From Thermoanaerobaculia bacterium (GTDB lineage Bacteria > Acidobacteriota > Thermoanaerobaculia > Multivoradales > JAHEKO01), in contig JBFGCA010000008.1 in NCBI GenBank assembly GCA_041567315.1, positions 2,990-66,989 of the forward strand: 64,000 bases of DNA. Direction: 5' to 3'. Positions 7,629-55,700 of the stretch are shown here, piece after piece (position 1 is the first letter of the stretch; every line of letters begins with the position of its first letter). The translations under genes were made by a program, and so were the position numbers. A model generated the notes under the pieces. The model was not told where the DNA came from and did no database searches. It saw only the letters and a program-made list of their open reading frames with translations.

Positions 7629-7764
7629 CGAGCCGCCTCCTCTCCTGAGGACCCGATTGTACCGCCGCGGCGGCCTGCACCGGGCCGACCTGCGCGCCCC
7701 CGTCTTGACCGGCCGCGGGCGGCGAGAGAAGATCGCCACCGTGCCGCCGGCGCCTCGCGAGCCG

Positions 7765-9137: not shown

Positions 9138-9150
9138 GGCGACTCCCCCT

Positions 9151-9669: not shown

Positions 9670-9681
9670 CGTTCGCCTCCT

Positions 9682-10194: not shown

Positions 10195-10253
10195 CAACTC
10201 CCTCCTCTCTGGGTTGGTTTATCGCTCTCGTCGCCGAGTCGGGAACGGCGGGT

Positions 10254-32261: not shown

Positions 32262-34202
32262 ATGCCCTCCGCCGCCCAGCCGGCCGCGGCACGCCGGGTC
32301 ATCGTCGGCACCGCCGGCCACATCGACCACGGCAAGACCCGGCTCATCGAGGCGCTGACCGGGATCGATTGCGACCGCTGGGCCGAGGAGAAGCGCCGCG
32401 GCATCACCATCGACATCGGCTTCGCCCACCTCGAGGACGGCGACCTGCAGGTCGGCTTCGTGGACGTGCCGGGGCACGAGCGGTTCCTCCACAACGCGCT
32501 GGCCGGGCTCGGCGGCATCCGGGTGATGCTGCTGGTGGTGGCGGCCGACGAGGGGGTCAAGCCGCAGACCCGCGAGCACCTGGCGATCTGCGAGCTGCTG
32601 GGCATCCCGGCCGGCCTGGTGGCGCTGACCAAGACCGACCTGGTGGCCGCCGACCTGCGCGAGCTGGCCGCCATGGAGGTCGAGGAGCTGCTGCAGACGA
32701 CCGCCTTCGCCGGCGCCCGGGTGCTGCCGGTCTCGGCGGTCACCGGCGAGGGGGTCCCCGAGCTCAAGGCGGCGCTGCTCGAGCTGGCCGCCCGCCACGC
32801 CGCCACGCCCGACCCCGAGCGGCCGCTGCGGCTGCCGGTCGACCGCGCCTTCCACCTCAAGGGCCTGGGCGTGGTGGTCACCGGCACCCTGGTGAGCGGC
32901 GCGGTGCGCCCCGGCGACGCCCTCGAGCTGCTGCCGGCCGGCGGCCAGGCGCGGGTGCGGAGCGTCCAGGTCCACGGCGCACCACGCGAGATGGCCGAGG
33001 CCGGCGAGCGGACGGCGCTTCAGCTCACCGGCCCCGACCTCGCCGATCTCGAGCGCGGCGTCCAGCTGGTCAGCGCCGCCGCCTTCCGGACCTCCACCTC
33101 GCTGCTCGCCCGGTGCAACCTGCTCGCCGAGGCGCCGCGCCCGGTCAAGGGCTCGACCCCGGTGCGCTTCCACCTGCTGACCAGCGAGACCGTGGGGCGG
33201 ATGCGGCCGCTGCAGGGTCCCCTCGAGCCGGGCGGCACCGGCCTGGTAGAGATCCGGCTGGCGCGCCCGGTGGTGGCCGCCCGCGGCGACCGCTTCGTGG
33301 TGCGGCGCCCCTCGCCGCAGACCACCCTCGGCGGCGGCGAGCTGCTCGACCCGCGCTGGCACCGGCGCCGCGGACGCGACCTCGAGCACGCCCTCGAGGC
33401 GCTGGCCGGCGGCCGCCGCGAGGCGCTCCGGCTGTGGGTCGAGGAGGCCGGTGAGGCGGGGACCGGCAGCGCCGAGCTGGCCGCCCGGCTGGGCCGCCGC
33501 GAAGAGCCGGTGGCGGCCGAGCTGGCGGCGCTCCAGAGGGAGCAGCAGGCGCTCGAGGTGCCGGCCGGCCAGGCCCGGCCGCGGCGCTGGCTCGCCCCCG
33601 GCGCCTATCGCCGCGTCGAGGAGCGCGCCCGCCGCGTCCTGGGCGCCTACTTCGGCCAGCAGCGGCTGGCCCGCGGCATGCCCAAGGCCGAGGCCGTCGA
33701 GCGCATCCTGCCGGGCCGCGCCGCCGAGCTGGCCGACGTCTACCTCGCCTGGCTCGAGCGCCAGGGCGTCCTGGCGGTCGACGGCAACCTGGTCCAGGAG
33801 CCCGGCCGCGAGACCCGCCTCACCGGCGAGGAGTCGCGACTCGCCCGCGAGCTGACCGCCCGCTACGAGAAGGCCGGCCTCCAGCCCCCAGCCCCCACGG
33901 CGCTCGCCACCGAGCTCGGCGCCAAGCCGCAGATCGTCGAGGGCGTCGTCCGCTACCTGATCGAGGGCGGCAAGCTGGCGCGCCTTCCCGGCGGCCTGCT
34001 GATCTCGCGCGCCGCCGTCCGCAAGCTGGCCGAAGACCTGCGCGCCAGCGGCTGGGAGCGCTTCAAGGTGCCGGCCTTCAAGGACCGCTACGGCCTCACC
34101 CGCAAGTGGGCCATCCCCATCCTCGAGCACCTCGACTCGATCGGCGTCACCCGGCGACTGGGCGACGACCGGCTGGTGGTCCGGAGCGGACCCGCCGGCT
34201 GA
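32262..34202 (+). CDS. selB: Selenocysteine-specific elongation factor
   Basis: [33 protein letters not shown]-terminal [13 protein letters not shown] winged helix. Confidence 0.95.
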
Positions 34203-40849: not shown

Positions 40850-41073
40850 GTCGGGATCTTATCCCCGGGCCGACGAGGGCCCGTGGGTTTCCAGGGTCGG
40901 TCCAGACGCCGCCGCAACGGCCAGCTCGGCCTCTGCAGCCGGTCTTCCCTACCCAGCTTCCGGACCGTCGCGCTCAGCCACCTCGACGTCGGCGGCCACT
41001 GCACGGGCGTCTGCAATAATCCGGGCGTCTCTTTTCCGACGACGACGCGACTCTCGGCCAAGGAGGGCACGAC

Positions 41074-41337
41074 ATGGGAGTGATGGGCCTTTTCTCGTGG
41101 ATCCTGATGGGGCTGCTGGCCGGCGCGCTGGCCAAGTTCTTCATGCCGGGCAAGGACCCCGGCGGCTGTCTGATGACCATCGTCATCGGCATCGTCGGCG
41201 CCCTGGCCGGCGGCTTCCTGGCCACCCAGCTCGGCTACGGGGGGATCTCGGGCTTCGACCTGCGCAGCCTGCTGATCGCCACCGGCGGCGCCTTCCTGCT
41301 GCTGCTGGTCTTGAGAGTCGTCAGGGGCCGGCGGTAG
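41074..41337 (+). CDS. GlsB/YeaQ/YmgE (transglycosylase-associated) membrane protein
   Basis: WILMGLLAGALAKFFMPGKDPGG...GIVGALAGG. Confidence 0.9.
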   Translation: MGVMGLFSWILMGLLAGALAKFFMPGKDPGGCLMTIVIGIVGALAGGFLATQLGYGGISGFDLRSLLIATGGAFLLLLVLRVVRGRR

Positions 41338-41349
41338 CCAGGCCAGGCG

Positions 41350-41856
41350 CTACCTCCGCGCCTGGCCGAGCAGGTGGCCGGCCTCGGGGAGGATCAGCCG
41401 CTCCATCGCCAGCTCGACCGCCTTGGGCGAGCCGGGAAGCACGAAGACCGCCTGGCGCCCGACCAGCCCGGCGACCGCCCGGCTGAGCATCGCCGCCGCC
41501 CCCACCTGCTCGAAGGAGAGCATCCGGAACAGCTCGCCGAAGCCGTCGACGCGGCGCTCGAGCAGCGGCGCGACCGCCTCGCAGGTGACGTCGCGCGGCG
41601 CGAAACCGGTGCCGCCGCTGGCCACCAGCAGATCGACCCCGTCGGCAGCGAGCAGCTCGCGGACCGCGGCTCGGACCGCCGCCTGCTCGTCGGGGACGAT
41701 CCGCGAGACCACCACCCGGTGGCCGGCCGCCGCCGCCAGCCGGCGGATCGCGTCGCCGCTGCCGTCGGTCTCCGGGGTGCGGCTGTCGCTCACCGTGAGG
41801 ACCGCGAAGCCCAGCCGGCCCGGCGCGTAACCGCGGTGCTGCTCGACGGCATCCAC
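41350..41856 (-). CDS. moaB: Molybdenum cofactor biosynthesis protein MoaB/MogA family
   Basis: LTVSDSR...DGSG, IVPDE, SGGTGFAPRDVT.EA, AMLSRA, LPGSP. Confidence 0.88.
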   Translation of the reverse strand: MDAVEQHRGYAPGRLGFAVLTVSDSRTPETDGSGDAIRRLAAAAGHRVVVSRIVPDEQAAVRAAVRELLAADGVDLLVASGGTGFAPRDVTCEAVAPLLERRVDGFGELFRMLSFEQVGAAAMLSRAVAGLVGRQAVFVLPGSPKAVELAMERLILPEAGHLLGQARR

Positions 41857-41982
41857 CGGGAATCAAGCTACCACGCCGGTCCCGACGTGGCGCCGCCGGC
41901 CACCTCCGGCAGCGGCATGCGTCCTCCGGCGCCCGACACTCGCCGCCGGCGGCGGCCGGTCGCTGCCAACCCTGAAGACGAA

Positions 41983-42011
41983 ACGGCCACCCGCACCCGG
42001 CGGGTGGCCGT
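41983..42011 (-). terminator. Hairpin, probable intrinsic terminator of the cytochrome cluster
   Basis: acggccacccg-N7-cgggtggccgt (11-bp stem) 28 nt past the stop codon; short U tract. Confidence 0.55.
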
Positions 42012-42039
42012 CTTCGATCGCCCTCGGTCGGGCGCGGCG

Positions 42040-42612
42040 TCAGTCGTGGTTGTACTTGAGCGGGTACTTCTCGTGCGTGCCCTCGTCCTTCATGGTCTCG
42101 AAGTCGAAGCTGTAGTCGGGGATGGGCACGTTCTCGTTGTGGCACTGGGCGCACTGCTCGGGGCCGACCTTCTCGACCATGCCGACGGCCACCAGGTCGG
42201 CCCGCTTGTACTCCTTGTTGTCGAGCGTCATGTAGCCGTCCTGGATGTAGGTGCCGCCGGCACCGTGGCAGGACTCGCAGCCCACCCCGGCCAGCTCCGG
42301 GGTGTCGGCCTCGCTGGTGAAACCGCCGGTCTTGCCGTAGCCGGTGACGTGGCAGGAGACGCACTCGGCGTCGGTGGTGTAGTCGGCCTGGGGATCGAGA
42401 CCGAGCTCCTGCTTGACCTCGGCGTCGACGCCTGGCTTGAGAGTCTCGAAGGCCTGGGCCATCTTGGTCTGCTCCCAGGACTTGAACTCCTTGAGGTGGC
42501 ACTTCTTGCAGCTCTTGGAACCGACGAAGGCGTGGTCGTCGGCCATGGCCGGGGCGCTCACGACCGCCAGCGCCACCGCGGCCAGCATCCAGATTCGCAA
42601 CAGGGATCTCAT
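42040..42612 (-). CDS. Tetraheme cytochrome c554-like periplasmic protein
   Basis: Signal peptide; FVGSKSCKKCH, CVSCHVTGYG..GGF, VGCESCHG.G, CAQCH. Confidence 0.85.
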   Translation of the reverse strand: MRSLLRIWMLAAVALAVVSAPAMADDHAFVGSKSCKKCHLKEFKSWEQTKMAQAFETLKPGVDAEVKQELGLDPQADYTTDAECVSCHVTGYGKTGGFTSEADTPELAGVGCESCHGAGGTYIQDGYMTLDNKEYKRADLVAVGMVEKVGPEQCAQCHNENVPIPDYSFDFETMKDEGTHEKYPLKYNHD

Positions 42613-42890
42613 CGATGGGGTCTCCTCATGATTCCTGGTTTTCTCCGGCGACCCGCTCGGCGCGACCGCCGCCCTCGTCCGTTTCCCTAGCAAGCACCGT
42701 TCCAAGCACCGGCCGGGCTCGGCCGAATCGCGCTGCCGCCCGCCGGGCGCCGAGATCGGCGAGCATACGCTAGCGGCCGCGCCGCGGCGCCGCGAACACC
42801 CGTCGGCGCGGGCCGGACCCCGGCCGGCCCCCTCCTTCCGGGTAGTCTCCGCGAACCGCGCTGCGCCGTTGTACGCGTCCTCGAATTCGG

Positions 42891-44021
42891 TCAGGCCGCT
42901 TCCGGCCCGGTCGCGGGATGGCGCAGCACCTCGCGCACCATGTAGCCGACCACGGCGAGCCCGGCGATCAGCAGCAGGGCGAAGAGCACGACGTTGCCCC
43001 ACTGGGGCGCGCTCGCCAGCTCGACGCCCGAGGTCACCGGCTCGAGGTAGAGCGCCCGCACCTGCTGGCGGGTGATCGACATGACGGCGATGGTCAGCAG
43101 CATGGCGGCGAGCACGCCGGTAACCGTCCCGGGCTCCTCGACCGGCCGGCGGACCCGCGAGATCATCATCAGCAGACCCAGGCCGAGCACGATGGCGGCG
43201 CCGAGCGGCAGCAAGGTGGCCAAACCGCCCCGCATCAGCCCCAGCAGTACTTCCCGGGGAAGGACGAAGAGCAGCACGAAGCCGTCGGCGACCTGCAGCA
43301 ACGTCGTCCACAGCACCCAGCGCCAGGCCCAGCCGGCGATCTCGCCGTTGAGCTCGGGCTCGCGCCCGGCCCGCGCCTGGCGCACCGCCCACCAGGCGGC
43401 CACCAGGGCGCTGAAGCCGAGCGACGCGAACAGGAAGTGCAGCAGCCGCGGCCAGTAGACGCGGTCGGCCAGGATCGACCACGGGTTGGCCGCCAGCGCC
43501 GCCCATTTGCCGGGCTGGGCGTGGATCAGGTTGACGGCGACGTGGACCATGGCGATCAGCAGGAAGAGCACCGCCGCCAGCGCCAGCCAGCCGGCGCCGC
43601 CCCCTCGGCCGCGCCCCGGGCGGGCGGCCGGGGCGCCGCGGAACTTGTAGGCGTAGGCGGCGTAGTAGCCCACCAGCAGCATCCCCAGGAAGGCCAGCCA
43701 GACCCCGCCGATCAGGATGGTCGCCGAGTAGAAGAACTGCTGGTAGAGGAGCTGGACGAACAGCAGCGGCGCGATGCCGGTGGTGATGGTCAGCGAGATG
43801 CCGTAGGTGTTGATCCCCATGAGCCGCGAGGCCAGGGTCGAGCGGTAGTCCCCCACCCCTCCCGCGCGCGCCTGGGCCACCGCCGCCAGCAGGGTGCCGC
43901 CCAGGGTCAGGTTCATGAAGACGACGTGGAGGAAGAACGTCAGCACCAGCAGCACCTGGAACAGCCAGGGCGGTCCCGGCAGCGGGATCGGGTCGAGGCG
44001 GGGGACGAGATCCGGGCTCAC
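42891..44021 (-). CDS. Polytopic membrane protein, divergent CydA-like second subunit
   Basis: GTG 44021 overlaps the upstream stop; FFLHVVFMN, GIAPLLFVQ, WPRLLHF, R..VR motifs; many TM segments. Confidence 0.7.
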   Translation of the reverse strand: MSPDLVPRLDPIPLPGPPWLFQVLLVLTFFLHVVFMNLTLGGTLLAAVAQARAGGVGDYRSTLASRLMGINTYGISLTITTGIAPLLFVQLLYQQFFYSATILIGGVWLAFLGMLLVGYYAAYAYKFRGAPAARPGRGRGGGAGWLALAAVLFLLIAMVHVAVNLIHAQPGKWAALAANPWSILADRVYWPRLLHFLFASLGFSALVAAWWAVRQARAGREPELNGEIAGWAWRWVLWTTLLQVADGFVLLFVLPREVLLGLMRGGLATLLPLGAAIVLGLGLLMMISRVRRPVEEPGTVTGVLAAMLLTIAVMSITRQQVRALYLEPVTSGVELASAPQWGNVVLFALLLIAGLAVVGYMVREVLRHPATGPEAA

Positions 44022-45364
44022 GGGCCCCCTCCCGCCACCGTCGGCGGCGCCGGCACCGCCAGCGAGGAGAGGTAGCCGGCGAGCGCCGCCAGCTCGTCCT
44101 CGGTGCCGACGAAGGGCGGCATGAACGGGTAGTCGAGCTTGGCCTTGTCGACCGGCTCGCCGGGGACGTACTCCCCGCCCTGTTCCCACAGGGCGTACAG
44201 GTTGGCCTCGATGAAGTCGGGGTCGATCAGCGGCCGGAGGGCCTGATAGCCGTCGAGAGTATGGCAGCTCGCGCACTGGGCGCGGAAGATGGCGCGGCCC
44301 GCGCCCGCCGGGTCCTCGGCGGCGGCGTGCGCCGCCCAGCCGGCTCGCGACAGGATCCCCTCTTCATTGAGCCTGGCGATCTCGCTCACCAGGATGCCGT
44401 TGGAGAACATGTAGTCGTGGATCAGGAACGGCTTGCGGACCCCCTCGCGCAGCCGCTCGTAGCCGCCAAAGAAGGCGAAGCCCGCCACCATCAGCAGCGC
44501 CGCGGTCGGCCGCCGCAGGGCGCGCGGCGCGGCCACCAGCACCAGGAGCCCGAGGCCCAGCACCGCGGTCAGCGCCCAGAGCAGGAAGCTGCGGGTGTCG
44601 GCCAGCGCCGTCAGGCCCGGACGCTCGCCGAGGAAGAGCGCCCGCGTGCTCTCCGGCAGCGCCGCCTCCCACCAGCGGTAGCCGGCGTAGGCCAGCGCCA
44701 CCCCGGCCAGCAGCCAGCCCCCCAGCCAGCGGGCCAGCCGCGGGCGCGCCGCCGGCGACGCCCGGAGGGCCGGAAAGACCATGAAGGAGACGGCCATCAC
44801 CAGCACGATCCCGGTCCGCAGCACCAGGGCGGGCCAGTAGGTGGGGTTGAAGAAGCCGTCCCAGAAGGCCCCGGTCTCGAGCCACCGGCCCGGGGTCAGC
44901 ATGAAGGTGACGATGCCGTTGATCACCACCAGCGACAGGTAGGCGGCCACGAAGTAGATCCAGCCGATCATCACGTGGGTGCGCCGGGCGATGCGGTCCC
45001 AGGTCGCGTAGTAGACCAGCGCCGCCACGATCTCGACGATGAAGAAGGTCCACTCGATGGCCCACCCCCAGACGTAGGTGTGGATCAGCGCCGAGATGGT
45101 GGCCGGCGAGATGAGACCCGCCACCACCCAGATCCCCACCCCGGAGATGGCCCCGAAGACGGTCGACACCAGGATCAGCATCAGCGACGAGCGCTTGGCT
45201 AGCTCGCGCAGCTCGCGGTCGCCGCGGCGGGCGGCCAGGGTCTCGCTGGCGGCGATCACCAGGCCGCCGCCGATCGCGAAGTGGGCGACGATGACGTGGG
45301 TGATGGCCACCATCCCCATCAGCACGCCGCCGCCGATGCCGACGTCGAAGATCGGATAGTCCAT
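44018..45364 (-). CDS. Cytochrome bd subunit I-like protein fused to a C-terminal cytochrome c
   Basis: ITHVIVAHFAIGGG, FGAISGVG, WAIEWTFFIVE, FMLTPG, FFNP, E..RE.VRKPF; CASCH and MPPF. Confidence 0.82.
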   Translation of the reverse strand: MDYPIFDVGIGGGVLMGMVAITHVIVAHFAIGGGLVIAASETLAARRGDRELRELAKRSSLMLILVSTVFGAISGVGIWVVAGLISPATISALIHTYVWGWAIEWTFFIVEIVAALVYYATWDRIARRTHVMIGWIYFVAAYLSLVVINGIVTFMLTPGRWLETGAFWDGFFNPTYWPALVLRTGIVLVMAVSFMVFPALRASPAARPRLARWLGGWLLAGVALAYAGYRWWEAALPESTRALFLGERPGLTALADTRSFLLWALTAVLGLGLLVLVAAPRALRRPTAALLMVAGFAFFGGYERLREGVRKPFLIHDYMFSNGILVSEIARLNEEGILSRAGWAAHAAAEDPAGAGRAIFRAQCASCHTLDGYQALRPLIDPDFIEANLYALWEQGGEYVPGEPVDKAKLDYPFMPPFVGTEDELAALAGYLSSLAVPAPPTVAGGGP

Positions 45365-45394
45365 GGCGAGGGGCCGGGAAGGCGCCCGGCGCGG

Positions 45395-46153
45395 CTAGGC
45401 GGCCGGGCGGAGCGACCGGATCATGGCGCGGAACGCCTCTTTCTGCGGCCGCACGGTGGCTTCCGGTCCGGTGAGCTTGAAAAACCAGTTGGCATCGAGG
45501 CCGGCGGCGATGGCGCCCAGCAGCATGTAGCCGGTGCGCTCCGGCTGGGGCGCGCCGGTCATCGTCATGCCGCCGCCGTAGGTGCCGGTGACCTCGGCCA
45601 GCAGGACGTCGACGCCCGCGACCTCGAGCCGCTCGGTCTCGAGGACCTCCCGCGACGAGCCGCCACCGGGTTGGAGGAACTCGTCGGCCCAGCGCCGGGC
45701 GTTGGCCTCGGCGTCGCCGCCCTGCCCGGGGCCGAAGTAGAAGACCACGCACTCGCCGTCGCCGCCCGGCCCGGGGATCCGGTACTGCGCGCGGCGCATC
45801 GCCGAGGACGGCGTCTCCTCGATCCAGCCGGCGGGCGCCTCCCAGGTCAGGCCGGCGGTCCCGGTGCCGCTGCCCGGCGGCGGTGGCGCGATCCGGCCCT
45901 CGGGCGTGGCCGGCGTGAGCGGCGGGTGGCCGGGCGGCAGACCGGCGTCGGTCGCCGGCCCGGGCTCCGCGGCCGCCGGCGGGGCGGCGTCGGTCGATGG
46001 CGCGCCGTCCCCGCCGCAGGCCGCCAGCAGCAGGGTCGGCACCAGCAGCGCGGCGGCGATCCCGGCCCGCCGGACGTGCCTCGTCGTCTTGTGGCGCTTT
46101 TCGGTCACCTGTGGAGTTCGGCAGCCTGCCGCGGGCGCGGGCCGCGGGCTCAT
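45395..46153 (-). CDS. Lipoprotein of unknown function with LPPGHPP motif
   Basis: Lipobox LAAC; LPPGHPP; W..P.GW....SSAMR; ANARRW; WFFKLTGP. ATGA overlap with the upstream gene (alternative GTG 46108). Confidence 0.72.
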   Translation of the reverse strand: MSPRPAPAAGCRTPQVTEKRHKTTRHVRRAGIAAALLVPTLLLAACGGDGAPSTDAAPPAAAEPGPATDAGLPPGHPPLTPATPEGRIAPPPPGSGTGTAGLTWEAPAGWIEETPSSAMRRAQYRIPGPGGDGECVVFYFGPGQGGDAEANARRWADEFLQPGGGSSREVLETERLEVAGVDVLLAEVTGTYGGGMTMTGAPQPERTGYMLLGAIAAGLDANWFFKLTGPEATVRPQKEAFRAMIRSLRPAA

Positions 46154-47325
46154 TGTACCGCCGGAGCCGCCGAGCGCTGGAGGTAGGCCAGCAGGTCCCG
46201 CAGGTCGTCGCCGCTCAGCTCCGGCCACGGCTTGCCCTCGCCCAGGATCGCCTCCTTCATGAACGGGGCGTGGCTCCACATCGCCGCCACGAAGGCCGCC
46301 GGCGAGTCGGCCGCACCGGTCTCCACCAGATCTGGGCCGGCGTGGGAGGCGGTGTCGACCGCCTCGTGGCACTCGGCACAGGAGCGCACGGCGAAGACCG
46401 CCTCGCCGCGGGCCGCGTCGCCGGGCGGGTCGCCGAACGGCAGGAAGTAGAGGAAGGCGATCAGGTCGGCCAGCTCGGGGGTGGTGAAGCGCGGCCAGCC
46501 GAGCCCCCGCTGCCGCATCAGGTCGTTCATCTCGGCGGCGTGGTTCCACATCAACCCGGCGATGGTCTCGGCCGGCTGGTGGAGGTCGCTCCGGGTCAGG
46601 TCGGGACCGCCGCCGGCGCTGCCGTCGGCCTCAGGGCCGTGGCACAGCGCGCAGCCGCGAGTCCGGAACAGCTCGCCCCCCCGGTTGGGATTGCCGGGCG
46701 CCAGCAGCATGGTCTCCTGCGGTCCGGCCTGCGCCGTCTGCCGGATGTAGGCCGCGAGATCGGCCAGATCCCCCTCGCCGAAGCTCGGCCGCCGCATGCC
46801 GGCGGCGCGCATGGTCTCGAACATGGCCGGGCCGTGGTTCCAGATCGCCTGGGCGATGAACAGCGGCGACGCGAAACGGTCGAGGCCACCCAGGTCGGGC
46901 CCGCGGCCGGCCCGCCCCACACCGTGGCACTCGCCGCAGCCCTTCGAGCGGTAGACCACACGACCCCGGGTCGCGTCGCCCGGACGTCCGAGGTAGTCGA
47001 TGAAGTAGAGGAACGCGGTCAGCTCGGCGGCCTCGCGCTCGGTCAGCGCCGGCCAGCCCAGCTCGGCTTCCTCAAGGCTGACGCTCATCCCCGGCACGTG
47101 GTTCCAGAGCGCGGCGCCGAGATCGAGGAAGCTGCCCGAGAAGGCGCCGCGACCGAGATCGGGGCCGACGCTCGGGGTGGCGCCGGTGATGCCGTGGCAG
47201 AGCACGCAGCTCCTGCTCTCGAAGAGCAGACGACCATGGAGCGGGTTGTCGGGCAGCGGCGGACCCTGGCGGCCCGCCCCGACCAGCGCCGCCGCGCACG
47301 CCAGCACCGCCAGCCGCGCCCTCAT
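46150..47325 (-). CDS. Tetraheme cytochrome c built from four class-I-like repeats
   Basis: CVLCH, CGECH, CALCH and CAECH, each followed by GPDL...W(N/S)H..xM; ATG 47325. Confidence 0.88.
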   Translation of the reverse strand: MRARLAVLACAAALVGAGRQGPPLPDNPLHGRLLFESRSCVLCHGITGATPSVGPDLGRGAFSGSFLDLGAALWNHVPGMSVSLEEAELGWPALTEREAAELTAFLYFIDYLGRPGDATRGRVVYRSKGCGECHGVGRAGRGPDLGGLDRFASPLFIAQAIWNHGPAMFETMRAAGMRRPSFGEGDLADLAAYIRQTAQAGPQETMLLAPGNPNRGGELFRTRGCALCHGPEADGSAGGGPDLTRSDLHQPAETIAGLMWNHAAEMNDLMRQRGLGWPRFTTPELADLIAFLYFLPFGDPPGDAARGEAVFAVRSCAECHEAVDTASHAGPDLVETGAADSPAAFVAAMWSHAPFMKEAILGEGKPWPELSGDDLRDLLAYLQRSAAPAVQ

Positions 47326-47594
47326 TCCGCACCCCCCTCCGCCCCGTCCGCCAGCTCCTCGGCGCCGCGGCGCAGTCCCAGGAAGACGTAGGTCAGGACC
47401 GCGGCCCCGGTCAGGAAGACCGGGATGGCGACGATCGAGATGGCGACCGAGGCCGACGGCACGTCGTGGAGCCGGTGCGACAGACGCAGCAGATGGACGA
47501 TCCAGTAGCTGATGCCCAGCACGAAGACCCAGATCAGCGATACCGAGGCCACCTGCAGTAGCGAGATCCACCGGGGGGTCGAGGTCCGTTTCAC
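47322..47594 (-). CDS. Small two-TM membrane protein
   Basis: Two hydrophobic stretches; tightly packed between the NrfD-like and cytochrome genes. Confidence 0.72.
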   Translation of the reverse strand: MKRTSTPRWISLLQVASVSLIWVFVLGISYWIVHLLRLSHRLHDVPSASVAISIVAIPVFLTGAAVLTYVFLGLRRGAEELADGAEGGAE

Positions 47595-47595
47595 G

Positions 47596-48945
47596 TCAGC
47601 CTCCGTCGGCCGCCGGGGCAGGGTCGGGCAGGTAGCTCTCCACCCGCTCGACGGTCTCCGGCACCGCCTCCTCCAGCCCCTCCCTCAGCTCCCAGACCGA
47701 GATCAGGGGGAAGAAGCGGGCGAAGAGCACGAACCCCAGGATAAAGGTGGCGATGCCGCCGGCGAACATCCCCCACTCGACCAGGCTGGGCACGTAGAAG
47801 CCGCTCGGCAGGGCCAGCCGCGGATTGGCCAGCGACGGCACCACGATGTTCAGCCGCTCGAGCCACATGCCCACAACCACCGCCGTCGAGGCGATGAAGA
47901 TCCCCGGCACCCGCCGCGTGCGGCGGAAGCTCAAGATCGCCACCGGGATCAGGAAGTTGCACGCCACCATCCCCCAGAAGGGCAAGGCGTAGGGTCCGGT
48001 GAGTTTGTAGAAGAAGACCCGCATCTCGGACGGCTCGTTGCCGAAGAACGCCGTCAGATATTCCGAGAAGGTGAAGTAGAACCACAGCAGCGACATGATG
48101 AGCAGCAGCTTCGCCAGGTGGGAGAAATGGATCTCCTTGAGATAGCGCTCCAGGTGGAAGACCCGGCGGAGGATGATCATCACCATCAACAGCGCCGCGA
48201 TCCCCGAGAAGATCGCCCCGACCACGAAGTAGGGCCCGAAGATGGTCGAGTGCCAGCCGGGCTGCAGGGTCATGGCGAAGATGTAGGAAATGACCGTGTG
48301 GACCGAAACCGCGATCGGAATGACCAGCACCATCATCACGTTGACCGCCCGGTCGAGCACCTTGCGCTGGCGCGGGGTCCCCTGCCAGCCCCAGGCGAGA
48401 AAGGCGTAGAGCCAGCGCGGCCGCGCCCCGCGGTCGCGCAGCAGCGCGATGTCGGGGATCATCGGGATGTAGAGGTAGACCGTCGAGGCCATGAAGTAGG
48501 CGGTGATCGAGCTGACGTCCCACAGGAGCGGCGACTGCAGCCGCCCGGCCGAGAAGATGTTGAGCATGCGGTCGGGCCGCCCGAGGTCGAGCACCGGGTG
48601 GAAGCCGCCGATCGCCAGCACCACGACGGTGATGACCTCCGCCATGCGGGTGATCGGCCGCCGCCACTCGGCGTGGGAGAGCCGCAGGATGGCCGAGATC
48701 AGGGTGCCGGCGTGGCTGATGCCGATGAAGAAGACGAAGTTGACGATGTAGAAACCCCAGGCCACCGGCTGGTTGAGCCCGGTGACGCCGAGGCCGTAGA
48801 GGATCTGGCGGCCGAACAGCACCCAGGCCGAGAGGATCACCAGCCCCAACAGGGTGGTCGCCACCCGGAACCCCAGGCCGGGCTCCTCCACCGAGCGCAG
48901 CAGGTCGCCGACGTCCAGCTCGGCCGCGGTCCGCTTCCGGCTCAT
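47596..48945 (-). CDS. NrfD/PsrC-family quinol-interacting membrane subunit (ActC/QrcD-like)
   Basis: WGFYIVNFVFFIGISHAGTLISAIL, RPITRMAE, DLGRP, SPLLWD, SVHTVIS, GWHSTIFGPYFV.GAIFSG. Confidence 0.92.
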   Translation of the reverse strand: MSRKRTAAELDVGDLLRSVEEPGLGFRVATTLLGLVILSAWVLFGRQILYGLGVTGLNQPVAWGFYIVNFVFFIGISHAGTLISAILRLSHAEWRRPITRMAEVITVVVLAIGGFHPVLDLGRPDRMLNIFSAGRLQSPLLWDVSSITAYFMASTVYLYIPMIPDIALLRDRGARPRWLYAFLAWGWQGTPRQRKVLDRAVNVMMVLVIPIAVSVHTVISYIFAMTLQPGWHSTIFGPYFVVGAIFSGIAALLMVMIILRRVFHLERYLKEIHFSHLAKLLLIMSLLWFYFTFSEYLTAFFGNEPSEMRVFFYKLTGPYALPFWGMVACNFLIPVAILSFRRTRRVPGIFIASTAVVVGMWLERLNIVVPSLANPRLALPSGFYVPSLVEWGMFAGGIATFILGFVLFARFFPLISVWELREGLEEAVPETVERVESYLPDPAPAADGG

Positions 48946-49625
48946 TCCTTCTCCGCCAGATAGATCACCTTGGGCCGGGTGCCGAGGTCTTCGTGGGGCC
49001 GGTAGGCGCGCGGGCTGCGCGCCAGCTCGCTCACCCGGCTGTGCGGATCGTCGAGATCGCCGAACTCGATCGCCCGGGCCGGACAGCTCTCGGCGCAGGC
49101 GGTGGTGACCTCGCCGTCGCGGATCTCGCGGTCCTCGAAGCGCGCCTGCTCGCGGGCGTGGTTGATCCGGTGGTGGCAGAAGGTGCACTTCTCCACCACC
49201 CCCTTGGGCCGCAGCGAGACGTCGGGGTTGGCCTTCTTGCGCAGCTCCCCCGGCCACTCGGGCTCGAACCAGTTGAACACCTTGGCGTTGTAGGGGCAGG
49301 CGGCCATGCAGTAGCGGCAGCCGATGCAGCGCGAGTAGACCTGGCCGACGATCCCCTCGTCGCTCAGATAAGTGGCGTGCACGGGGCAGACCCGGACGCA
49401 CGGCGGGTTGTCGCACTGCACGCACAGCACCGGCTTGTAGCGCACCTCGGCGTGGGTGGCGGTGCCCGACACCTCGCGCAGCAGGCGGATCCAGTGGAAG
49501 GCGCGGCTCTCCCTGGTCTGCTCCCGTCCGACCGCGGTCAGGTTGTTCTCCTGATGGCAGGCGGCCATGCAGTTGCCGCAGCCGGTGCAGCGGTCGAGGT
49601 CGATGGTCATGCCCCAGCGGGCCAT
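48942..49625 (-). CDS. 4Fe-4S ferredoxin subunit (NrfC/DmsB/QrcC-like)
   Basis: CTGCGNCMAAC, CVQCDNPPCVRVCP, CIGCRYCMAACPY, KCTFC, ACAESCP; ATG 49625. Confidence 0.93.
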   Translation of the reverse strand: MARWGMTIDLDRCTGCGNCMAACHQENNLTAVGREQTRESRAFHWIRLLREVSGTATHAEVRYKPVLCVQCDNPPCVRVCPVHATYLSDEGIVGQVYSRCIGCRYCMAACPYNAKVFNWFEPEWPGELRKKANPDVSLRPKGVVEKCTFCHHRINHAREQARFEDREIRDGEVTTACAESCPARAIEFGDLDDPHSRVSELARSPRAYRPHEDLGTRPKVIYLAEKE

Positions 49626-52024
49626 CAGCCGTGCCCTCCGGCCAGCGGCCGCGGTCCGCCCCGCCGCCGGCGCTCGACCAGCCGCACCCTCACCGGGGTG
49701 CCGCCGGTCGCCAGCCGGCCGGAGATCGGGTCGGAGCCCGCTGCAGCCAGGGCCACCGGGTTGGCGCCGACCCCGTCGGCGGCGCCGCCGGGCTGGCGCC
49801 GGCCGAGCCCGAGCGGCACGTGAACTGCGCCGGGCGTGGCGCCCGGCTCGATGGAGACCACGGCCTCGAGCCGACCGCGCGTCGACTCCAGCTCGACCCG
49901 GTCGCCCTCGTGGAGGCCCAGTTCGTGCGCCGTCTCCGGCGCCAGCTCGGCCCAGGTCTGCCACCCGGACAGCACCACGTGGCCGTACATCTCGAGCACC
50001 ATCGGCGAGCTGACCCCCAGGGTCCCGCGGCCGGTGATCGGGCGGAACGGGACCAGCGTCAGCTCTCCCGGCGCCGTCGCCGGCGGTGGCTCGAAGTGCG
50101 GCAGGAAGGCCTCGTCGCCGGCCGGCGTCGCCGCCGCGTCCGCCCCGGCGCGCTCGCCCAGCCGGCGCTCCAGCTCGAGCGAGAAGAACTCGAAGCGGCC
50201 GCTGCGGGTGGGGAACAGGCGCTCCCAGTCGCCGCCCGCGCGCACCGGGTTCCACCAGCCGCCCTCGGTGGTCAGATCGCTCCAGAAGGCGTCGCGGTCG
50301 CCGCGCTCGAGGAACCGCCAGCCGCGCTCCTCGAGGAAGTGCACCCAGGTCTCCTCGAACGAGCCCGAGATCACCGACCCCTGACCCGACACCAGCAGCC
50401 CCTCCAGCCGCTGCTCGAGATAGCCCCGGTAGTCCTTCCAGGGCAGCGCCGCCGCGGCCGGCCCGCCGGCGCGGCGCGCCAGCTCGAGCAGCACGTCGCC
50501 CGGGTGGCGGCTGTCGAAGAGCGGCTCCACGACCGGACGGGTGACCCCCAGTACGCTGAAAGCGACGCCGGGCGGGGTGGTCGACTCCTGCCAGGTCTCG
50601 AAGAACAGCGGAGTCGGCAGCACCAGGTCGGCGCAGGCGGCGGTCTCGTCCAGGAACGGGCTGCAGGCCACCACCAGGGGAACGCCGCGCAGGGCCGCGG
50701 CCAGCTCGTCGCCGGCCGGGCTGTCGTGGACCGGGTTGGCCCCGACCAGGAAGACCACCTCGAGGTCCCTGGCGGCCGCCAGGGCGGCGATCGGATCGCT
50801 TCCCGGCGCCGCTCCGGCTCCGTTCGGCGCGAAGATGCCCGGGCCGGCCGGTTCCGGCAGCGGCGCCAGCGGCGTGAACGGGATCGGCGGCGGCAGCACC
50901 ACCCCGCCCGGCCGGTCGAAGGCGCCGAGCAGCGCGTTGAGGGCGTGGACGGCGAGACCGGTCGAGGCGGCGTTCGGCCCGGTGGCCGCCTCGCCACCCC
51001 ACACCACCACCGGTGACGCGGCCCGCGCCAGCCGCCGCGCGGCGCGGATGATCTGCCCGGCATCGCAGCCGCTCAACTGCGCCGCCCGATCGGGGTAGTA
51101 GCGCTCCAGCAGCAGCCGGCGGAAGCCCAGCCGCGGCCGGCCGGCGTCGTCGGTCCAGTCTTCGAAGCCGAAGGTGTGCTCGCTGACGAAGCGGCGGTCG
51201 TAGCGCCCCTCCCTGACCAGCACGTGGGCGATGCCCAGGGCTACCGCGGCGTGCGTCCCGGGCCGCACCGCCAGGTGCTCGTCGGCCTTGGTGGCGGTGG
51301 GCGACAGCCGCGAGCCGACGTGGATCAGCCGGCCGCGCTCGGCCCGGGCTCGCCAGCCCACCATGGCGGAGACCACGTGGATCGGCGCCGCCCCGTCCTC
51401 GAACAGGTCGAGGCCCACCGACAGCACCAGGTCGCTGTGAGCGAGGTCGAAGCCGGGCACCCGGTCCAGGCCCTGCGACAGCAGATAGGGCAGCGCCGCC
51501 GCCTCCTCGGGCCGCGCCACGTTGGGCGAGCCGAGGGCGTGGACGAAGCGCGTGGCCAGCTCGTCGAAAAGCCGGCCCGGCTCACCGCTCAGCAGGGCCA
51601 CCCGGCGCCCTTGGCCGCCGGCGACCAGCGAGGCCACTCGATCGGCGATCTCGCCCAGCGCCTCCTCCCAGCCCACCGCCTCGAAGTCGCCGTCGGCCCG
51701 ACGCCGCCGCGGGCCCTGCAACCGGTCGGGGGCGTAGAGCACCTCGAGTCCCGCCTGTCCCACCGGACACAGGCCGCCCCGGTTCAGGGGATGCCGCGGG
51801 TTGCCCTTGAGCCCGACCGGCAGACCGTCGACCAGCCGCACCGTGAGCCCGCACCCGCCCTCGCAGAGACCGCACAGGGTGTGGTGGTGGCTCTCGATCC
51901 CCGGGCCGCGCAGGGCGGCCTCCACCAGCCGGTCGGGCACCAGGAAGCGACCGCACCCGCCCAGCGCCGCGGCGCCGGCGGCGCCCCCCAGCAGTTTCAG
52001 GAATTCGCGGCGCTCGAGGATCAC
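49625..52024 (-). CDS. Tat-exported molybdopterin-oxidoreductase-fold subunit (QrcB/ActB-like)
   Basis: RREFLK plus LGGC lipobox; CGLCEGGC...LCPVG Fe-S motif; PDRL..P; ADLVLP...E; C-terminal molydopterin-binding-like domain. Confidence 0.88.
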   Translation of the reverse strand: MILERREFLKLLGGAAGAAALGGCGRFLVPDRLVEAALRGPGIESHHHTLCGLCEGGCGLTVRLVDGLPVGLKGNPRHPLNRGGLCPVGQAGLEVLYAPDRLQGPRRRRADGDFEAVGWEEALGEIADRVASLVAGGQGRRVALLSGEPGRLFDELATRFVHALGSPNVARPEEAAALPYLLSQGLDRVPGFDLAHSDLVLSVGLDLFEDGAAPIHVVSAMVGWRARAERGRLIHVGSRLSPTATKADEHLAVRPGTHAAVALGIAHVLVREGRYDRRFVSEHTFGFEDWTDDAGRPRLGFRRLLLERYYPDRAAQLSGCDAGQIIRAARRLARAASPVVVWGGEAATGPNAASTGLAVHALNALLGAFDRPGGVVLPPPIPFTPLAPLPEPAGPGIFAPNGAGAAPGSDPIAALAAARDLEVVFLVGANPVHDSPAGDELAAALRGVPLVVACSPFLDETAACADLVLPTPLFFETWQESTTPPGVAFSVLGVTRPVVEPLFDSRHPGDVLLELARRAGGPAAAALPWKDYRGYLEQRLEGLLVSGQGSVISGSFEETWVHFLEERGWRFLERGDRDAFWSDLTTEGGWWNPVRAGGDWERLFPTRSGRFEFFSLELERRLGERAGADAAATPAGDEAFLPHFEPPPATAPGELTLVPFRPITGRGTLGVSSPMVLEMYGHVVLSGWQTWAELAPETAHELGLHEGDRVELESTRGRLEAVVSIEPGATPGAVHVPLGLGRRQPGGAADGVGANPVALAAAGSDPISGRLATGGTPVRVRLVERRRRGGPRPLAGGHG

Positions 52025-52033
52025 CGGGACTCC

Positions 52034-52540
52034 TCAGTGGTGGCAGTGGATGCAGTCGTTCGACGCACCCGATTGGTCGTGGCACTCCATGCAGTCGTTC
52101 ATCGTCGGTCGCCGGTGCGGTCGGGTGACCGGCTCGGTGCGCTCGCCCACCTGGCCGTGGCAGACCTCGCACTCCAGGCCGGCGATCGCGGTGTGCCGGC
52201 GATGCGAGAAGTAGACGTGGGCCGGCACCCGGTAGACCTTCTGCCAGGGGATGGGCTGGCCCGTCGTCACGTACTCGACCACCTGCGCCTCTTCGGCTGA
52301 CTCGCCCTGAACCTCCTCGTGACAGTCGACGCAGACCTCGACGTTGGGGATGGTGGCGCGGACGCCGCTCAGGGCCCAGCGGTGGCAGTCGGCGCACTCG
52401 GCGCCCACCTCCTCGACGTGGAGGTTGTGGTTGAAGGCCACGGGCTGGGTGACCCGCCAGGGCCTGTAGGGCAGAAAAGGCGCGGCCGTGCCGAGCACTA
52501 CCGTGAGCAACGTCAGGGTTCGGGCCGGAGCGGCGATCAA
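52034..52540 (-). CDS. Membrane-anchored pentaheme cytochrome c (ActA/QrcA-like)
   Basis: QPVAFNH..H, CADCH, CVDCH, HVYFSHRRH, CEVCH, CMECH, CIHCH. Start uncertain (TTG 52540 chosen). Confidence 0.85.
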   Translation of the reverse strand: MIAAPARTLTLLTVVLGTAAPFLPYRPWRVTQPVAFNHNLHVEEVGAECADCHRWALSGVRATIPNVEVCVDCHEEVQGESAEEAQVVEYVTTGQPIPWQKVYRVPAHVYFSHRRHTAIAGLECEVCHGQVGERTEPVTRPHRRPTMNDCMECHDQSGASNDCIHCHH

Positions 52541-52792
52541 GGACGCCTCGCTAACGCCGATGGTAGACTCGCGCCAAAGGAACTTCGCTCCCTCGCTGGA
52601 CGACGCCGAGAAGCTACCGGTGGTCTCGCCGGGAGCGAACACCCCTAGGGATGGCTGGCGGCCTCCCTCCAGGCGGGAAGCGGGCCACCCGCTCGGGTAG
52701 TTGGCCTCGGGCCCGCCGGCTACGAGGCCGCCACGGATCACCAGGCGTCCGGCGCGCGGTGGGGGACCGCCCCGTGGTTAGAATCCCGCGCG

Positions 52793-55700
52793 ATGAGACG
52801 GACCCTGCACGGCTTCGCCTTTTGTGCTCTGGCCGCCGCCACGCTGGCCGCGGCGCCCTCGGAGGAGGCGCTCGAGCTCCGCAACCTGGGGCTCGCCGAG
52901 CTCGAGAACGAACAGCCCGGCAACGCCGAGGAGCTCTTCCGCCGGCTGGTGGCGATGGTGCCGGACGACCCGCTGCCGGCCGCCAACCTGGCGATCGCCG
53001 CGCTCCGCCAGCAGAAGTTCGAGGAGGCGAGCGAGTGGGTCGGCCGGGCGCTGGCCAAGAGCCCGGGCGACCCACGGCTGCTGGCCATCGAGGCCGAGAT
53101 CCACCTGTGGAGCGGTCAGCCGCAGCAGGCGCTCGCCGTCTACCGGCAGGCGGCCGCCGGTGCCCCGCGGGACCCCGAGATCCAGTACGCGCTGCTCCGC
53201 CAGGCCGCCAACTTCCCCGGCGACGAGGCGACGGTGGCGGCCGGCGAGGCGCTGGGGCGACTCATGAAGCTGCGGCCCGACAACCTGGTGGTGATGCTCC
53301 AGGTCGGCCAGCAGGCGGTCGCTGCCGGCGACCGGGCGGCGGCCACCGCCGCCTACCTGCGGATCCGCGAGCTGCTGTGGCAGGCCCCGGGGCCGGCCGA
53401 GCGGCTGCTCGAGGAGATCCTCGGCAAGCTGGAGGCCGGCGAGCCGGCGGCGGCGCGGGTGCCGGCGCAGCGCCTGGAGAACGTCCTCAAGGTGACGCCG
53501 ATGTTCCGCGAGACCCAGCGCGAGCTGGCGACCGGCATCCAGGGGGTGCCGCTGGTGCGCTTCCGCGACGAGCCGGAGCCGGTGGTCTTCGGCGAGCCTC
53601 TGGAGGTGCGCTTCCGTGGTGCGCGGCTGGCCGAGGGGCCGGCGGCGGCGCCGGTGGCGGCCGACTTCGACGGCGACCGCCGAACGGACCTCGCCTGGCT
53701 GGCGGGCGGGCAGCTCGTCGTGCGGCTGGCGACCGCCGGCGGGGGGCCGCCGGCGCGGCTGCCCGCGGCCGGGATCGCCGGGCTGCTGGCCGCCGACCTC
53801 GACAACGACGGCAAGCTCGACCTCGTCGGCTGGGGCACCGAGCGGTTCGAGCTGTGGAAGGGAGACGGGGCGGGCGGCTTCACCGCTGCCTCCGACTCCG
53901 GGCTCGCCGGCGGCGCCGCGGCGGCGGCGGTGATCGACTTCGACATCGAGGGCGATCTCGACCTGGCGGCGGTCGGCGGCAAGCGCGGGCTCGAGCTCTA
54001 CCGCAACGCGCTCGCCGGTCCGCTCGAGGCGGTGGGCGAGCGCACCCTGCCGCGCCCGGCGCCCGAGGACGGCACCGCGCTCATCGTCTCCGACCTCGAC
54101 CGCGACGGCGACCTCGACCTGCTGGTCGCGCACCGCGGCGGCCTGGCCTGGCTCGACAACCTGCGCCAGGGCACCTTCGTCGACCGCACCCACGAGTCGG
54201 GGCTGGCGGCGGCCGGCGCGGCCAGGGCGATGGCCAGCGCCGACCTCGACAACGACGGGCTGCCCGACCTGGTGACCGCCGGCCGCGGCGTCAAGCTCTA
54301 CCGCAACCTGGGCGGGCGCTTCGGCCCCTGGGCGCTGGGCGACAAGCTCCGGACCAGCGCCGAGTTCAGCTCGGTCGAGACCTTCGACGCCGACAACGAT
54401 GGCCGGCTGGACCTGGCGGTCGGCGGGCCGGGCGGGCTGGCGGTGCTGGCGCGGCGCCAGGGCCGTTTCGAGTTCCTGCCGCTGGAGGAGGCGCCCTCCC
54501 GGGTGGCGGCGGTCCTCGCCGCCGACCTCGACCAGGACTGCGACCTCGACCTGGTGACCGCCGGCCCCGAGGGCGTGCACCGCCTCGAAAACCTCGGCGG
54601 CGACGCCAACCGCTGTCTCCAGGTCAGGCTCCAGGGTCTCGACAAGGGCAGCAGCAAGAACAACTTCTTCGGGCTCGGCGCCACCCTCGAGCTGCGCGCC
54701 GGCCGCGCCTACCAGTTCCGCGAGGCGACCGGCGACGTCACCCACTTCGGGATCGGCCGCTTCGCCGAGGTCGACCTGCTGAGGGTGGTGTGGACCAACG
54801 GCGTGCCCCAGAACCGGCTCGCTCCCGGGGCCGAGCCGCGGATCGTCGAGGAGCAGCTCCTCAAGGGGAGCTGCCCGTTCCTTTACGCCTGGGACGGCGA
54901 GCGGGTGCGGTTCGTGACCGACCTGCTGTGGGGCGCGCCGGCCGGGCTGCCGGTGGCGCCCGGGGTGTGGGCCGGCGCCGACCCCTCGGAGCTGGTGCGG
55001 GTCGACGGCGCGGCGCCGCGCGGCGGGGTCTGGGACCTGCGGATCACCGAGGAGCTGTGGGAGGCGGCGTACTTCGACCTGGTGCGGCTGTGGGTGGTCG
55101 ACCACCCGGAGGACGTCGAGGTCGCCAGCAGCCTCAAGGTGGTGCCGGGTGCGCAGGTGCCCGACCGGGTGCACGGCACCCGCGGGCTGCGGCCGGTGGC
55201 GGCGGCCGTCGACGCCGCCGGGAACGACGCCACCGCCCGGGTCGCCGCCCGCGACGAGATCTACGCCGACGGCTGGCGGGCGAGCGCCTACCAGGGGGTT
55301 GCGGCCAAGCCCTGGAGCTTCACCTTCGACCTCGGCGAGGCGCCCGCCGGACCGGTGCGGCTCCACCTCGACGGCTGGATCTTCCCCGCCGACGCCAGCC
55401 TCAACCTGGCGGTGGCCCAACGCCAGGGCGGGCCGGCTCCCCTGCCGCCGCGCCTCGAGGTCGAGACCGCCGCCGGCTGGCGCACCCTCCTGCCGTCCAT
55501 GGGCTTCCCGGCCGGCAAGACCAAGACCATGGTGGTCGACACCCCGCCGCTGCCCGCCGGCGCCCGGCGGCTGCGGATCGTCTCCGGGCAGTGGCTCTCC
55601 TGGGACCGCGTCGCCTGGTCGGAGCGGCCTGCCGACGCCGAGCCCGTGGTCCGCACCCGGCTCGCCCCGGCGCGGGCCGACCTCGCCTACCGCGGCTTCT

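Follow-up and report, generated by a model that had tools for sequence, protein, structure and literature searches.

Within a 64,000-nucleotide stretch of DNA from a Thermoanaerobaculia bacterium (GenBank assembly GCA_041567315.1, contig JBFGCA010000008.1, positions 2,990 to 66,989; hereafter the window), a run of ten genes at 42040-52540 is predicted to encode a variant of alternative complex III (ACIII) without the subunit ActF, a pair of bd-like oxidase subunits of the type named OR-C1, and a c554-family cytochrome. We consider it probable that this locus is a lineage-specific operon whose products would carry electrons from quinol to O2, by way of the ACIII-like unit, then c-type cytochromes and lastly OR-C1. 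The joint between the two modules is real, the arrangement is rare, and it is not a conserved supercomplex.

The window has a G+C content of about 72%, which explains why raw lists of its open reading frames (ORFs) are crowded. Genes were called from third-position G+C (GC3) by frame together with a stop-to-stop reading of the ORFs, which gave ten minus-strand genes, listed here with the spacing to the next one:

g1, 52034..52540, minus strand: ActA-like pentaheme cytochrome c, five CxxCH motifs, 168 aa from a TTG, start uncertain; 9-nt gap to g2
g2, 49625-52024, minus strand: Tat-exported molybdopterin-fold subunit without Mo ligand (ActB1/QrcB-like), Tat motif RREFLK; 1-nt overlap with g3
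g3, 48942-49625, minus strand: four-cluster Fe-S subunit (ActB2/QrcC-like); 4-nt overlap with g4
g4, 47596-48945, minus strand: ActC-type NrfD membrane subunit with the predicted quinol site; 1-nt gap to g5
g5, 47322-47594, minus strand: conserved small subunit with two transmembrane helices, in the ActD position; 4-nt overlap with g6
g6, 46150-47325, minus strand: tetraheme cytochrome c with four class I domains and four CxxCH motifs, probable lipoprotein, in the ActE position; 4-nt overlap with g7, or a 41-nt gap if g7 starts at 46108
g7, 45395-46153 (alternative start 46108), minus strand: lipoprotein of an unnamed family, lipobox LAAC, between the two modules; 30-nt gap to g8
g8, 44018-45364, minus strand: OR-C1a, predicted CydA-like membrane domain with a C-terminal monoheme cytochrome c, one CxxCH motif; 4-nt overlap with g9
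g9, 42891-44021, minus strand: OR-C1b, predicted second CydA-like subunit without heme c and without both glutamates; 278-nt gap to g10
g10, 42040-42612, minus strand: tetraheme c554-family cytochrome with a Sec signal, four CxxCH motifs

A first-pass annotation made from the letters alone had described ten co-oriented genes with 14 CxxCH motifs, and both are real (five motifs in g1, four in g6, one in g8 and four in g10). Its list of parts was also correct: Pfam and NCBIfam back every domain call save those of g5, g7 and g9, for which no family exceeded a curated cut-off. The description of the genes as overlapping or abutting fits g1 to g9, where four junctions are 4-nt overlaps and the widest gap is 30 nt (41 nt with the g7 start at 46108), but not g10, which lies 278 nt off. 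With no gap above 41 nt the packing of g1 to g9 is operon-like, and we infer that these nine genes are co-transcribed.

Module A, comprising g1 to g6, is on sequence grounds a variant ACIII without ActF. The g1 product is a c7/c3-type pentaheme cytochrome according to Pfam and NCBIfam and matches the ActA chains of solved complexes with phmmer E-values of 1.7e-25 to 1.5e-19 (8k9e_A, 1.7e-25; 6f0k_A, 1.5e-21; also 6btm_A and 6lod_A). Both parts of ActB, the Mo-fold and the four-cluster Fe-S part, are present in two separate genes, with the Mo ligand absent and the first cluster motif kept. In g2, which contains the Pfam domains Molybdopterin, Molybdop_Fe4S4 and Molydop_binding and whose best phmmer matches among solved structures are ArrA (6e-45) and PsrA (4e-39), ahead of ActB, the CX2CX3CX27C motif of the first Fe-S cluster is retained; it is conserved in the aligned orthologs, and true QrcB keeps the first cluster motif too. 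The Mo-binding Cys of PsrA (C173) and ArrA is replaced in the alignment (PEEAAALPY in g2) and missing in 59 of 59 aligned module orthologs and in true QrcB, while two unrelated paralogs in the alignment retain it. Because this residue is absent from g2 and its orthologs, we regard g2 as a non-catalytic protein of the ActB1/QrcB type; a working molybdoenzyme was rejected on the same ground. The g3 product belongs to Fer4 families in Pfam and is 48% identical to the Fe-S part of a fused ActB encoded elsewhere in the window's genome, on contig C93.

The membrane subunit g4 has its best solved match in ActC of Rhodothermus marinus (6f0k_C, 6e-77, residues 31-433), followed by 8k9e_C, 6lod_C and 6btm_C; it matches ActF weakly and gives no match to solved PsrC at E <= 0.01. 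Compared with R. marinus ActC, using the residue lists in the accessible part of PMC8076601, g4 keeps the proton-path residues H97, T100, S103, R114, R119, E122, T125, Y270, E394 and R395. The accompanying genes were followed through the best 80 of 343 loci found with g4 (66-89% identity; the module loci), which by record title come from Acidobacteriota, Gemmatimonadota, Ignavibacteriota, Bacteroidota, Calditrichota, Krumholzibacteriota and others. All six module genes occur in 54 of the 80, in conserved order (g1-g6 or g5-g6-g1-g4) and in at least eight phyla by record title. The small protein g5 accompanies g4 in 69 of the 80 (at least 60 aligned residues) and has 12 invariant columns among 31 sequences; searched against solved structures, its profile found no ActD at E <= 10. 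The tetraheme g6, with three stretches each of Pfam Cytochrom_C and Cytochrome_CBB3, is conserved beside g5 in the module loci and has no match to solved ActE at E <= 0.01. There is a single NrfD gene in the cluster, and the sole ActF-like match in the genome lies on C93. The earlier statement that clear ActD, ActE and ActF genes are lacking thus needs qualification: ActF is indeed missing from the cluster, but the places of ActD and ActE are taken by g5 and g6, which accompany g1-g4 in different phyla.

The name "Qrc/ACIII-like" given to module A by the first-pass annotation can be narrowed to its second half. The best NCBIfam models for g1, g2 and g3 are QrcA (108.6 bits, cut-off 180), QrcB (310 bits, cut-off 440) and QrcC (280.4 bits, cut-off 400), so all three stay under their cut-offs, whereas true QrcB, QrcC and QrcD in Desulfobacterales genomes reach 484, 445 and 665 bits, all above theirs. 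The g4 protein has no match to the QrcD model NF041784 at E <= 0.01, and phmmer against the true QrcD that itself scores 665 bits gives an E-value of 0.93. The phylogeny of the NrfD subunit, proposed earlier as a check, was addressed with a quick maximum-likelihood tree of 37 NrfD-type proteins, supported solely by the Shimodaira-Hasegawa-like approximate likelihood ratio test (SH-aLRT). In this tree the 16 g4-type rows form one clade (SH-aLRT 99) nested in a group with canonical ActC (100), an intermediate set and ActF (98), while QrcD, DsrP and HmcC-like rows lie across a branch with a support of 98; g4 thus belongs to the ActC-type group and not to QrcD. In addition, a search of the 93.9%-complete genome for DsrA (TIGR02064) gave no match. 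Since g4 fails the QrcD model and groups with ActC, and no DsrA was found, we take module A to be an ACIII variant rather than Qrc. Two Desulfobacterales genomes, G333 (L180:2323-6921) and G334, hold both a bona fide QrcBCD and the ACIII-like module, so the two systems are not substitutes for each other.

Module B consists of g8 and g9, which by sequence are the OR-C1a/OR-C1b pair of Murali, Gennis and Hemp (2021, bioRxiv 10.1101/2021.01.16.426971). As the accessible text of that preprint describes it, OR-C1 has eight helices and ends in a heme c, the quinol site is missing, the spacing between the glutamates is short, and a duplicate, "b", is encoded next to it. The g8 family comprises 2170 proteins at E <= 1e-10 among 8000 candidates scored, and 521 loci in species-representative genomes. 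The protein itself matches Pfam Cyt_bd_oxida_I with 32.9 bits (cut-off 26.2) over residues 16-194, where the match ends at model position 191 of 418, and carries a Pfam cytochrome c domain at residues 353-435. Invariant among 31 family members are H23, H28, E104, E111, H130, the heme c motif C364xxC367H368 and M415. The family profile matches solved CydA (9r2g_A, 2.2e-4; 5doq_A, 3.1e-4), and in the alignment with Geobacillus CydA, H23 corresponds to H21, E104/E111 to E101/E108 and H130 to H128. The position of the heme b558 ligand His186 is occupied by an invariant Arg183. An AlphaFold 2 model of g8 (predicted local distance difference test, pLDDT, 79.1) has CydA as its top Foldseek matches. 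In line with the first-pass reading of g8 as a cytochrome c-fed bd-like protein, it lacks the quinol-side features of a canonical bd oxidase and carries a heme c domain. The second subunit, g9, directly follows g8 in 77 of 80 loci, the other three being cut by contig ends. Its alignment shows an invariant helix-1 His and no invariant or conserved glutamates; it is related to the g8 family (hhalign probability 95%, E 3.6e-8), and its AlphaFold 2 model (pLDDT 89.6) retrieves CydA first (9r2g_A, 1.4e-5; 5doq_A, template modelling score 0.76), ahead of CydB. As previously stated for the locus, CydB is missing: the 93.9%-complete genome contains nothing that matches PF02322, g8 is its only match to PF01654, and it has no canonical CydA.

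On these grounds, quinol would be oxidised at g4, from where electrons would cross first the Fe-S clusters and next the ActA-like hemes before arriving at the tetraheme g6 and perhaps at the c554 protein as well. From g6 they would enter the heme c of g8 and reach O2. The OR-C1a protein retains the O2-site helices and both proton-path glutamates, has an Arg in place of the b558 His, and bears a periplasmic heme c as the likely point of electron entry. Because the b558 ligand is lost and a heme c gained, OR-C1a should need a periplasmic c-type donor; it follows that a quinol:cytochrome c oxidoreductase is needed, and the nearest candidates are the ACIII-like unit and the tetraheme g6. The route from quinol through an ACIII-like complex and cytochrome c to a bd-like reductase, already suggested by the first-pass annotation, is thus a reasonable reading of the operon.

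The joint between the modules at g6, g7 and g8 recurs in nature. Short contigs of public sequencing runs bridge g6/g7 in four studies, among which the source of the assembly may be included, and g7/g8 in three studies. The bridging contigs listed show no differences, and one of them was obtained from soil in a study that has no connection with the likely source. A chimeric assembly or a binning artefact at the joint was rejected because contigs from four studies bridge the module boundary.

We propose only tentatively, and hold it to be somewhat doubtful, a more far-reaching version of the operon reading. In this lineage, and in the near-identical populations that four metagenome studies sampled, the modules may have been welded into one operon that forms a full quinol-to-O2 branch without a heme-copper oxidase, in which g6 would dock on the heme c of OR-C1a. 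No earlier natural system would then have named the physiological electron donor of the OR-C family.

Several observations weigh against the proposed coupling of the modules. The g8 survey covered the best 80 of 521 loci, 63 of them with at least 8 kb of upstream DNA, and g1-g6 lie near OR-C1 only in locus L014 (1 of 80; 1 of 63 with that much upstream DNA). Even there, g6 is separated from g8 by a CREG/PNPOx-like gene and a c554 gene in opposed orientation, and because of the opposed c554 the two modules must be separate transcription units. Conversely, neither g8 nor g9 was found in any of the 80 module loci. In the 41 relatives of the window's genome (tallies that include G001 as a non-carrier), eight have a g8 ortholog and eight a g4 ortholog at >=82% identity; three carry both, five OR-C1 only and five the module only. 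The g8 and g4 orthologs of G006 and G019 are on different contigs; in G006, the closest relative with both (contigs C27 and C109), the roughly 9 kb that precede g7 consist of other DNA. An even sample of 301 Acidobacteriota genomes contained 78 with a g8 relative, 48 with a g4 relative (E <= 1e-100; many of these belong to the intermediate ActC group) and 12 with both, on different contigs in 11 of the 12 and on one contig only in the window's own genome. The proportion of OR-C1 carriers among genomes with a g4 relative (12/48) compared with the sample overall (78/301) therefore shows no enrichment, and among five genomes with a g4 ortholog of at least 84% identity OR-C1 occurs only in the window's own. 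Other donors are conceivable as well: contig C93 of the window's genome encodes a canonical ACIII (fused ActB, ActC and ActF), and the genome also contains several genes for cytochrome b and two for subunit I of heme-copper oxidases. The partner usually met beside the ACIII-like module elsewhere is a Rieske/cytochrome b set and not an oxidase: 29 of 79 loci have a bc-type cytochrome b no more than 10 kb away, and 18 of these have a Rieske protein too. Finally, of four quinone-site residues of ActC, g4 keeps S164 and D169 while H139 and D253 are changed. Since the modules are rarely adjacent and scattered separately across genomes, we regard them as independently distributed cassettes whose joining is local, and neither module as dependent on the other.

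Both modules have other neighbours elsewhere. Just upstream of OR-C1a, a divergent Fur-family regulator is present in 49 of 80 clustered OR-C1 loci (OR-C1 ORFs in 77), for example at L036:9216-9683(-) and L038:4329-4844(-); scored against PerR and Fur models, all scores were under the cut-offs. A non-heme ferritin is nearby in 27 and a tyrosyl-tRNA synthetase in 40, and with these as the usual neighbours no electron donor is obvious. In six of the 80 loci, a same-strand protein of about 650-690 aa with 11 CxxCH motifs and a membrane cytochrome b561 (Ni_hydr_CYTB) directly follows OR-C1b:

L013:12514-14592, fusion of an 11-heme cytochrome and b561
L015:12731-14635, fusion of an 11-heme cytochrome and b561
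L061:12616-14607, fusion of an 11-heme cytochrome and b561
L064:2310-4340, fusion of an 11-heme cytochrome and b561
L079:2246-4210, fusion of an 11-heme cytochrome and b561
L083:12578-14620, fusion of an 11-heme cytochrome and b561

Judged by its domains, this fusion is another candidate quinol module for OR-C1, and the presence of OR-C1 beside a b561-type quinone module fits the need for an upstream quinol dehydrogenase. As for the ACIII-like module, the loci with cytochrome b include L123, L126, L136, L143, L145, L146, L153, L159 and L160; the genes are usually co-oriented and a NapC-like multiheme is often present. Such loci would combine two different quinol-oxidising machines, the module and Rieske/cytochrome b, in one gene string. 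In 12 of the 79 module loci a histidine kinase and a sigma-54 activator are encoded just upstream.

In the Atlas, g7 falls into unnamed lipoprotein clusters with PsbP/DcrB as only a weak lead, and a locus search with g7 over genome contigs gave 375 pattern matches, none of which was confirmed. Among the 80 OR-C1 loci, g7 adjoins g8 only in L011 and L022, which are closest to the window's g8 (79% and 82% identity) and have g7-g8-g9-g10 as in the window; upstream of g7 they encode a TPR protein and multiheme cytochromes, and no module. The g7 family is present in 24 of the 41 relatives, mostly apart from either module, and because it usually lies elsewhere in these genomes we do not consider g7 a dedicated subunit. 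The g10 product matches Pfam Cytochrome_C554 (3.4e-28). A sigma-54-like element, TGGAACGGTGCTTGC (42690-42704, minus strand, one mismatch), lies 78 nt before its ATG; sigma-54-like matches are not enriched window-wide (33 found, 53 expected). Sequence context suggests that g10 is probably its own transcription unit, and the earlier inclusion of c554 in the gene string could not be upheld, given the 278-nt gap and the fact that g10 homologs elsewhere adjoin either module (9 of 80 loci for OR-C1, 27 of 80 for the ACIII-like module). A pair formed by c554 and a CREG/PNPOx-like beta-barrel gene is found beside the module (L092:1-787), beside OR-C1 (L012:1622-2700) and between both (L014:8414-9713). 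In G006, a close c554 copy lies beside each module, and the two share 88% and 84% identity with g10.

Two other explanations of the arrangement accept the identities of the modules. According to one, which we judge to be rather unlikely, nothing but a rearrangement made the modules neighbours and each works on its own, the ACIII-like unit serving other periplasmic acceptors via c554, multihemes or Rieske/cytochrome b and OR-C1 acting as a low-flux scavenger of O2 or peroxide on the general cytochrome c pool. Their separate distribution and almost complete lack of adjacency are as expected from it, as are the Fur-family regulators (49/80) and ferritins (27) at OR-C1 loci and the Rieske/cytochrome b (29/79) and c554-like genes (27/80) at module loci. 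On the other hand, the spacing of g6, g7 and g8 (a 4-nt overlap or 41-nt gap, then a 30-nt gap) is typical of one transcript, and because the same joint occurs in contigs from four studies it appears to be stably kept. The opposite explanation, an obligate and undescribed supercomplex of ACIII-like and bd-like parts involving all ten genes, would account for the co-oriented packing and has a precedent in the ACIII-aa3 supercomplex of Flavobacterium johnsoniae (entry 6BTM). We find it improbable: a survey of synteny, named in the first-pass annotation as a way to test its proposal, found the halves apart in 79 of 80 OR-C1 loci and all 80 module loci, and on one contig in 1 of 12 genomes, the linker g7 belongs to a widespread family usually encoded elsewhere in the genome, and c554 stands 278 nt away. 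The annotation's own ground for refutation, a lack of synteny in other genomes, thereby nearly applies. We treat any physical contact between the modules as hypothetical.

Two further explanations concern module A itself and have still less to recommend them. It could run in the Qrc direction, from periplasmic cytochromes (c554 or multihemes) to quinone, without feeding OR-C1; the best NCBIfam names of g1-g3 are Qrc names, g2 keeps its first Fe-S cluster motif as true QrcB does, and c554-family proteins donate electrons to the quinone pool in nitrifiers. However, the three scores below cut-off, the failure of g4 against QrcD and its grouping with ActC, the lack of a DsrA match in the genome, and an oxidase that comes next in the same gene string make this direction very improbable. 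Scarcely credible is an active molybdoenzyme in g2, by which g1-g4 would be a sulfur, arsenic or selenium reductase or oxidase. The ranking of ArrA and PsrA above ActB in phmmer and a MoaB/Mog-like gene downstream (41350-41856) speak for it, but the Mo-binding Cys is absent from g2 and from 59/59 orthologs and is kept by the two unrelated paralogs. The lineage-specific operon from quinol to O2 is the reading we prefer.

The surroundings of the cluster are unrelated to it: a divergent gene for an FG-GAP/TPR protein precedes it, genes for MoaB/Mog and PolA lie on its downstream side, and no other respiratory genes were found in the rest of the window. The MoaB/Mog-type molybdenum cofactor gene (41350-41856, minus strand) lies 183 nt downstream of the c554 gene; its position beside a cluster whose Mo-fold protein has no Mo ligand is probably a coincidence. 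An Rfam scan of 40800-53600 gave no match at E <= 0.1. A promoter scan returned no sigma-70-like sites, and all terminator-like matches on the minus strand fall within coding sequence, both scans being uninformative at 72% G+C. Elsewhere in the window, three tandem genes of about 172 aa at 8619-10197 (minus strand), each with a phage tail collar domain, are flanked by a 1481-aa cadherin/Ig-like protein and a GNAT acetyltransferase, and a 2191-aa DUF11/GEVED repeat protein adjoins this tail collar/cadherin set (1504-8079 and 8619-10197, minus strand). A gene for the selenocysteine elongation factor SelB at 32262-34202 (plus strand) indicates that the organism probably makes selenoproteins.

In the literature searched, OR-C bd-like oxidases and the ActF-less ACIII-like complex are known from genome sequence only. 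An operon coupling both would offer a concrete donor-acceptor pair, a natural source for purification and a lead to the OR-C donor. The survey shows each module to be a movable cassette, the ACIII-like unit being combined with Rieske/cytochrome b, c554 or OR-C1 and the OR-C1 cassette with the 11-heme-cytochrome b fusion or the ACIII-like unit. Such partner exchange is relevant to the way in which Acidobacteriota and neighbouring phyla put together branched respiratory chains.

Compared with the solved ACIII of Rhodothermus marinus (6F0K), Flavobacterium johnsoniae (6BTM), Roseiflexus (6LOD) and Chloroflexus (8K9E), module A shares the pentaheme ActA, a Mo-fold without cofactor ligand joined by an Fe-S part, and an ActC with a proton path. 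It differs in that ActB is split into two genes with the first Fe-S motif kept, ActF is missing, the ActD position is taken by the two-helix g5, which has no detectable likeness to ActD, and the ActE position by the tetraheme g6. QrcABCD, as described in the accessible parts of PMC6303296 and PMC8076601, follows a comparable four-gene plan, in which a multiheme cytochrome is combined with a cofactor-less Mo-fold protein, an Fe-S subunit and a ten-helix NrfD-like protein, and provides the best NCBIfam names of g1-g3 (QrcA, QrcB and QrcC). Unlike Qrc proper, however, g1-g3 are under the equivalog cut-offs, g4 has no QrcD match and no DsrA was found in the genome. The actAB1B2CDEF clusters of neutrophilic iron oxidisers also have a split ActB, with a CX2CX3CX27C motif in ActB1 as in g2, but the available text of PMC4643136 shows ActF and a single-gene ActE retained there. 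By description, g1-g6 agree in gene content with the ACIII-like "cluster 4" of MBNT15 SHF-111. The accessible part of PMC9386147 presents it as ActABCD accompanied by an ActE-like protein that has four hemes where ActE has one, places it apart from the genes for cytochrome c oxidase and proposes a role in iron reduction; the same text reports no bd-like oxidase alongside.

For module B, the OR-C1 account in the accessible text of bioRxiv 10.1101/2021.01.16.426971 fits: g8 has the first four CydA helices with the O2-site residues, the short glutamate spacing of the Geobacillus type, no quinol or b558 features, a C-terminal periplasmic heme c and about eight helices, and g9 is the adjacent "b" paralog without glutamates. 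The g8 and g9 proteins themselves show no difference from it, and the distinguishing element is the upstream ACIII-like module, which is absent from that text on OR-C1. Our literature search yielded no paper with an OR-C1 pair beside an ACIII-like module; Figure 1 and the supplements of Murali et al., which cover operon contexts and lay outside the search, may show one. The nearest precedent for the combination is Ca. Manganitrophus noduliformans TO_3, in which, according to the accessible part of bioRxiv 10.1101/2021.11.15.468770, two bd-like subunits are joined to ACIII and read as a quinol-to-O2 path; there the bd-like proteins are of "clade V" and the host is a member of the Nitrospirota, so that the likeness to the window is again one of description, and in TO_4 a bd-like oxidase cluster occurs with complex III. 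Because clusters of ACIII with bd-like oxidases and both kinds of module have already been published, "undescribed supercomplex" was too strong a term; the arrangement is real and rare, not a new class of complex or machine, and it unites an ACIII variant and an OR-C1 pair that are each familiar from other genomes.

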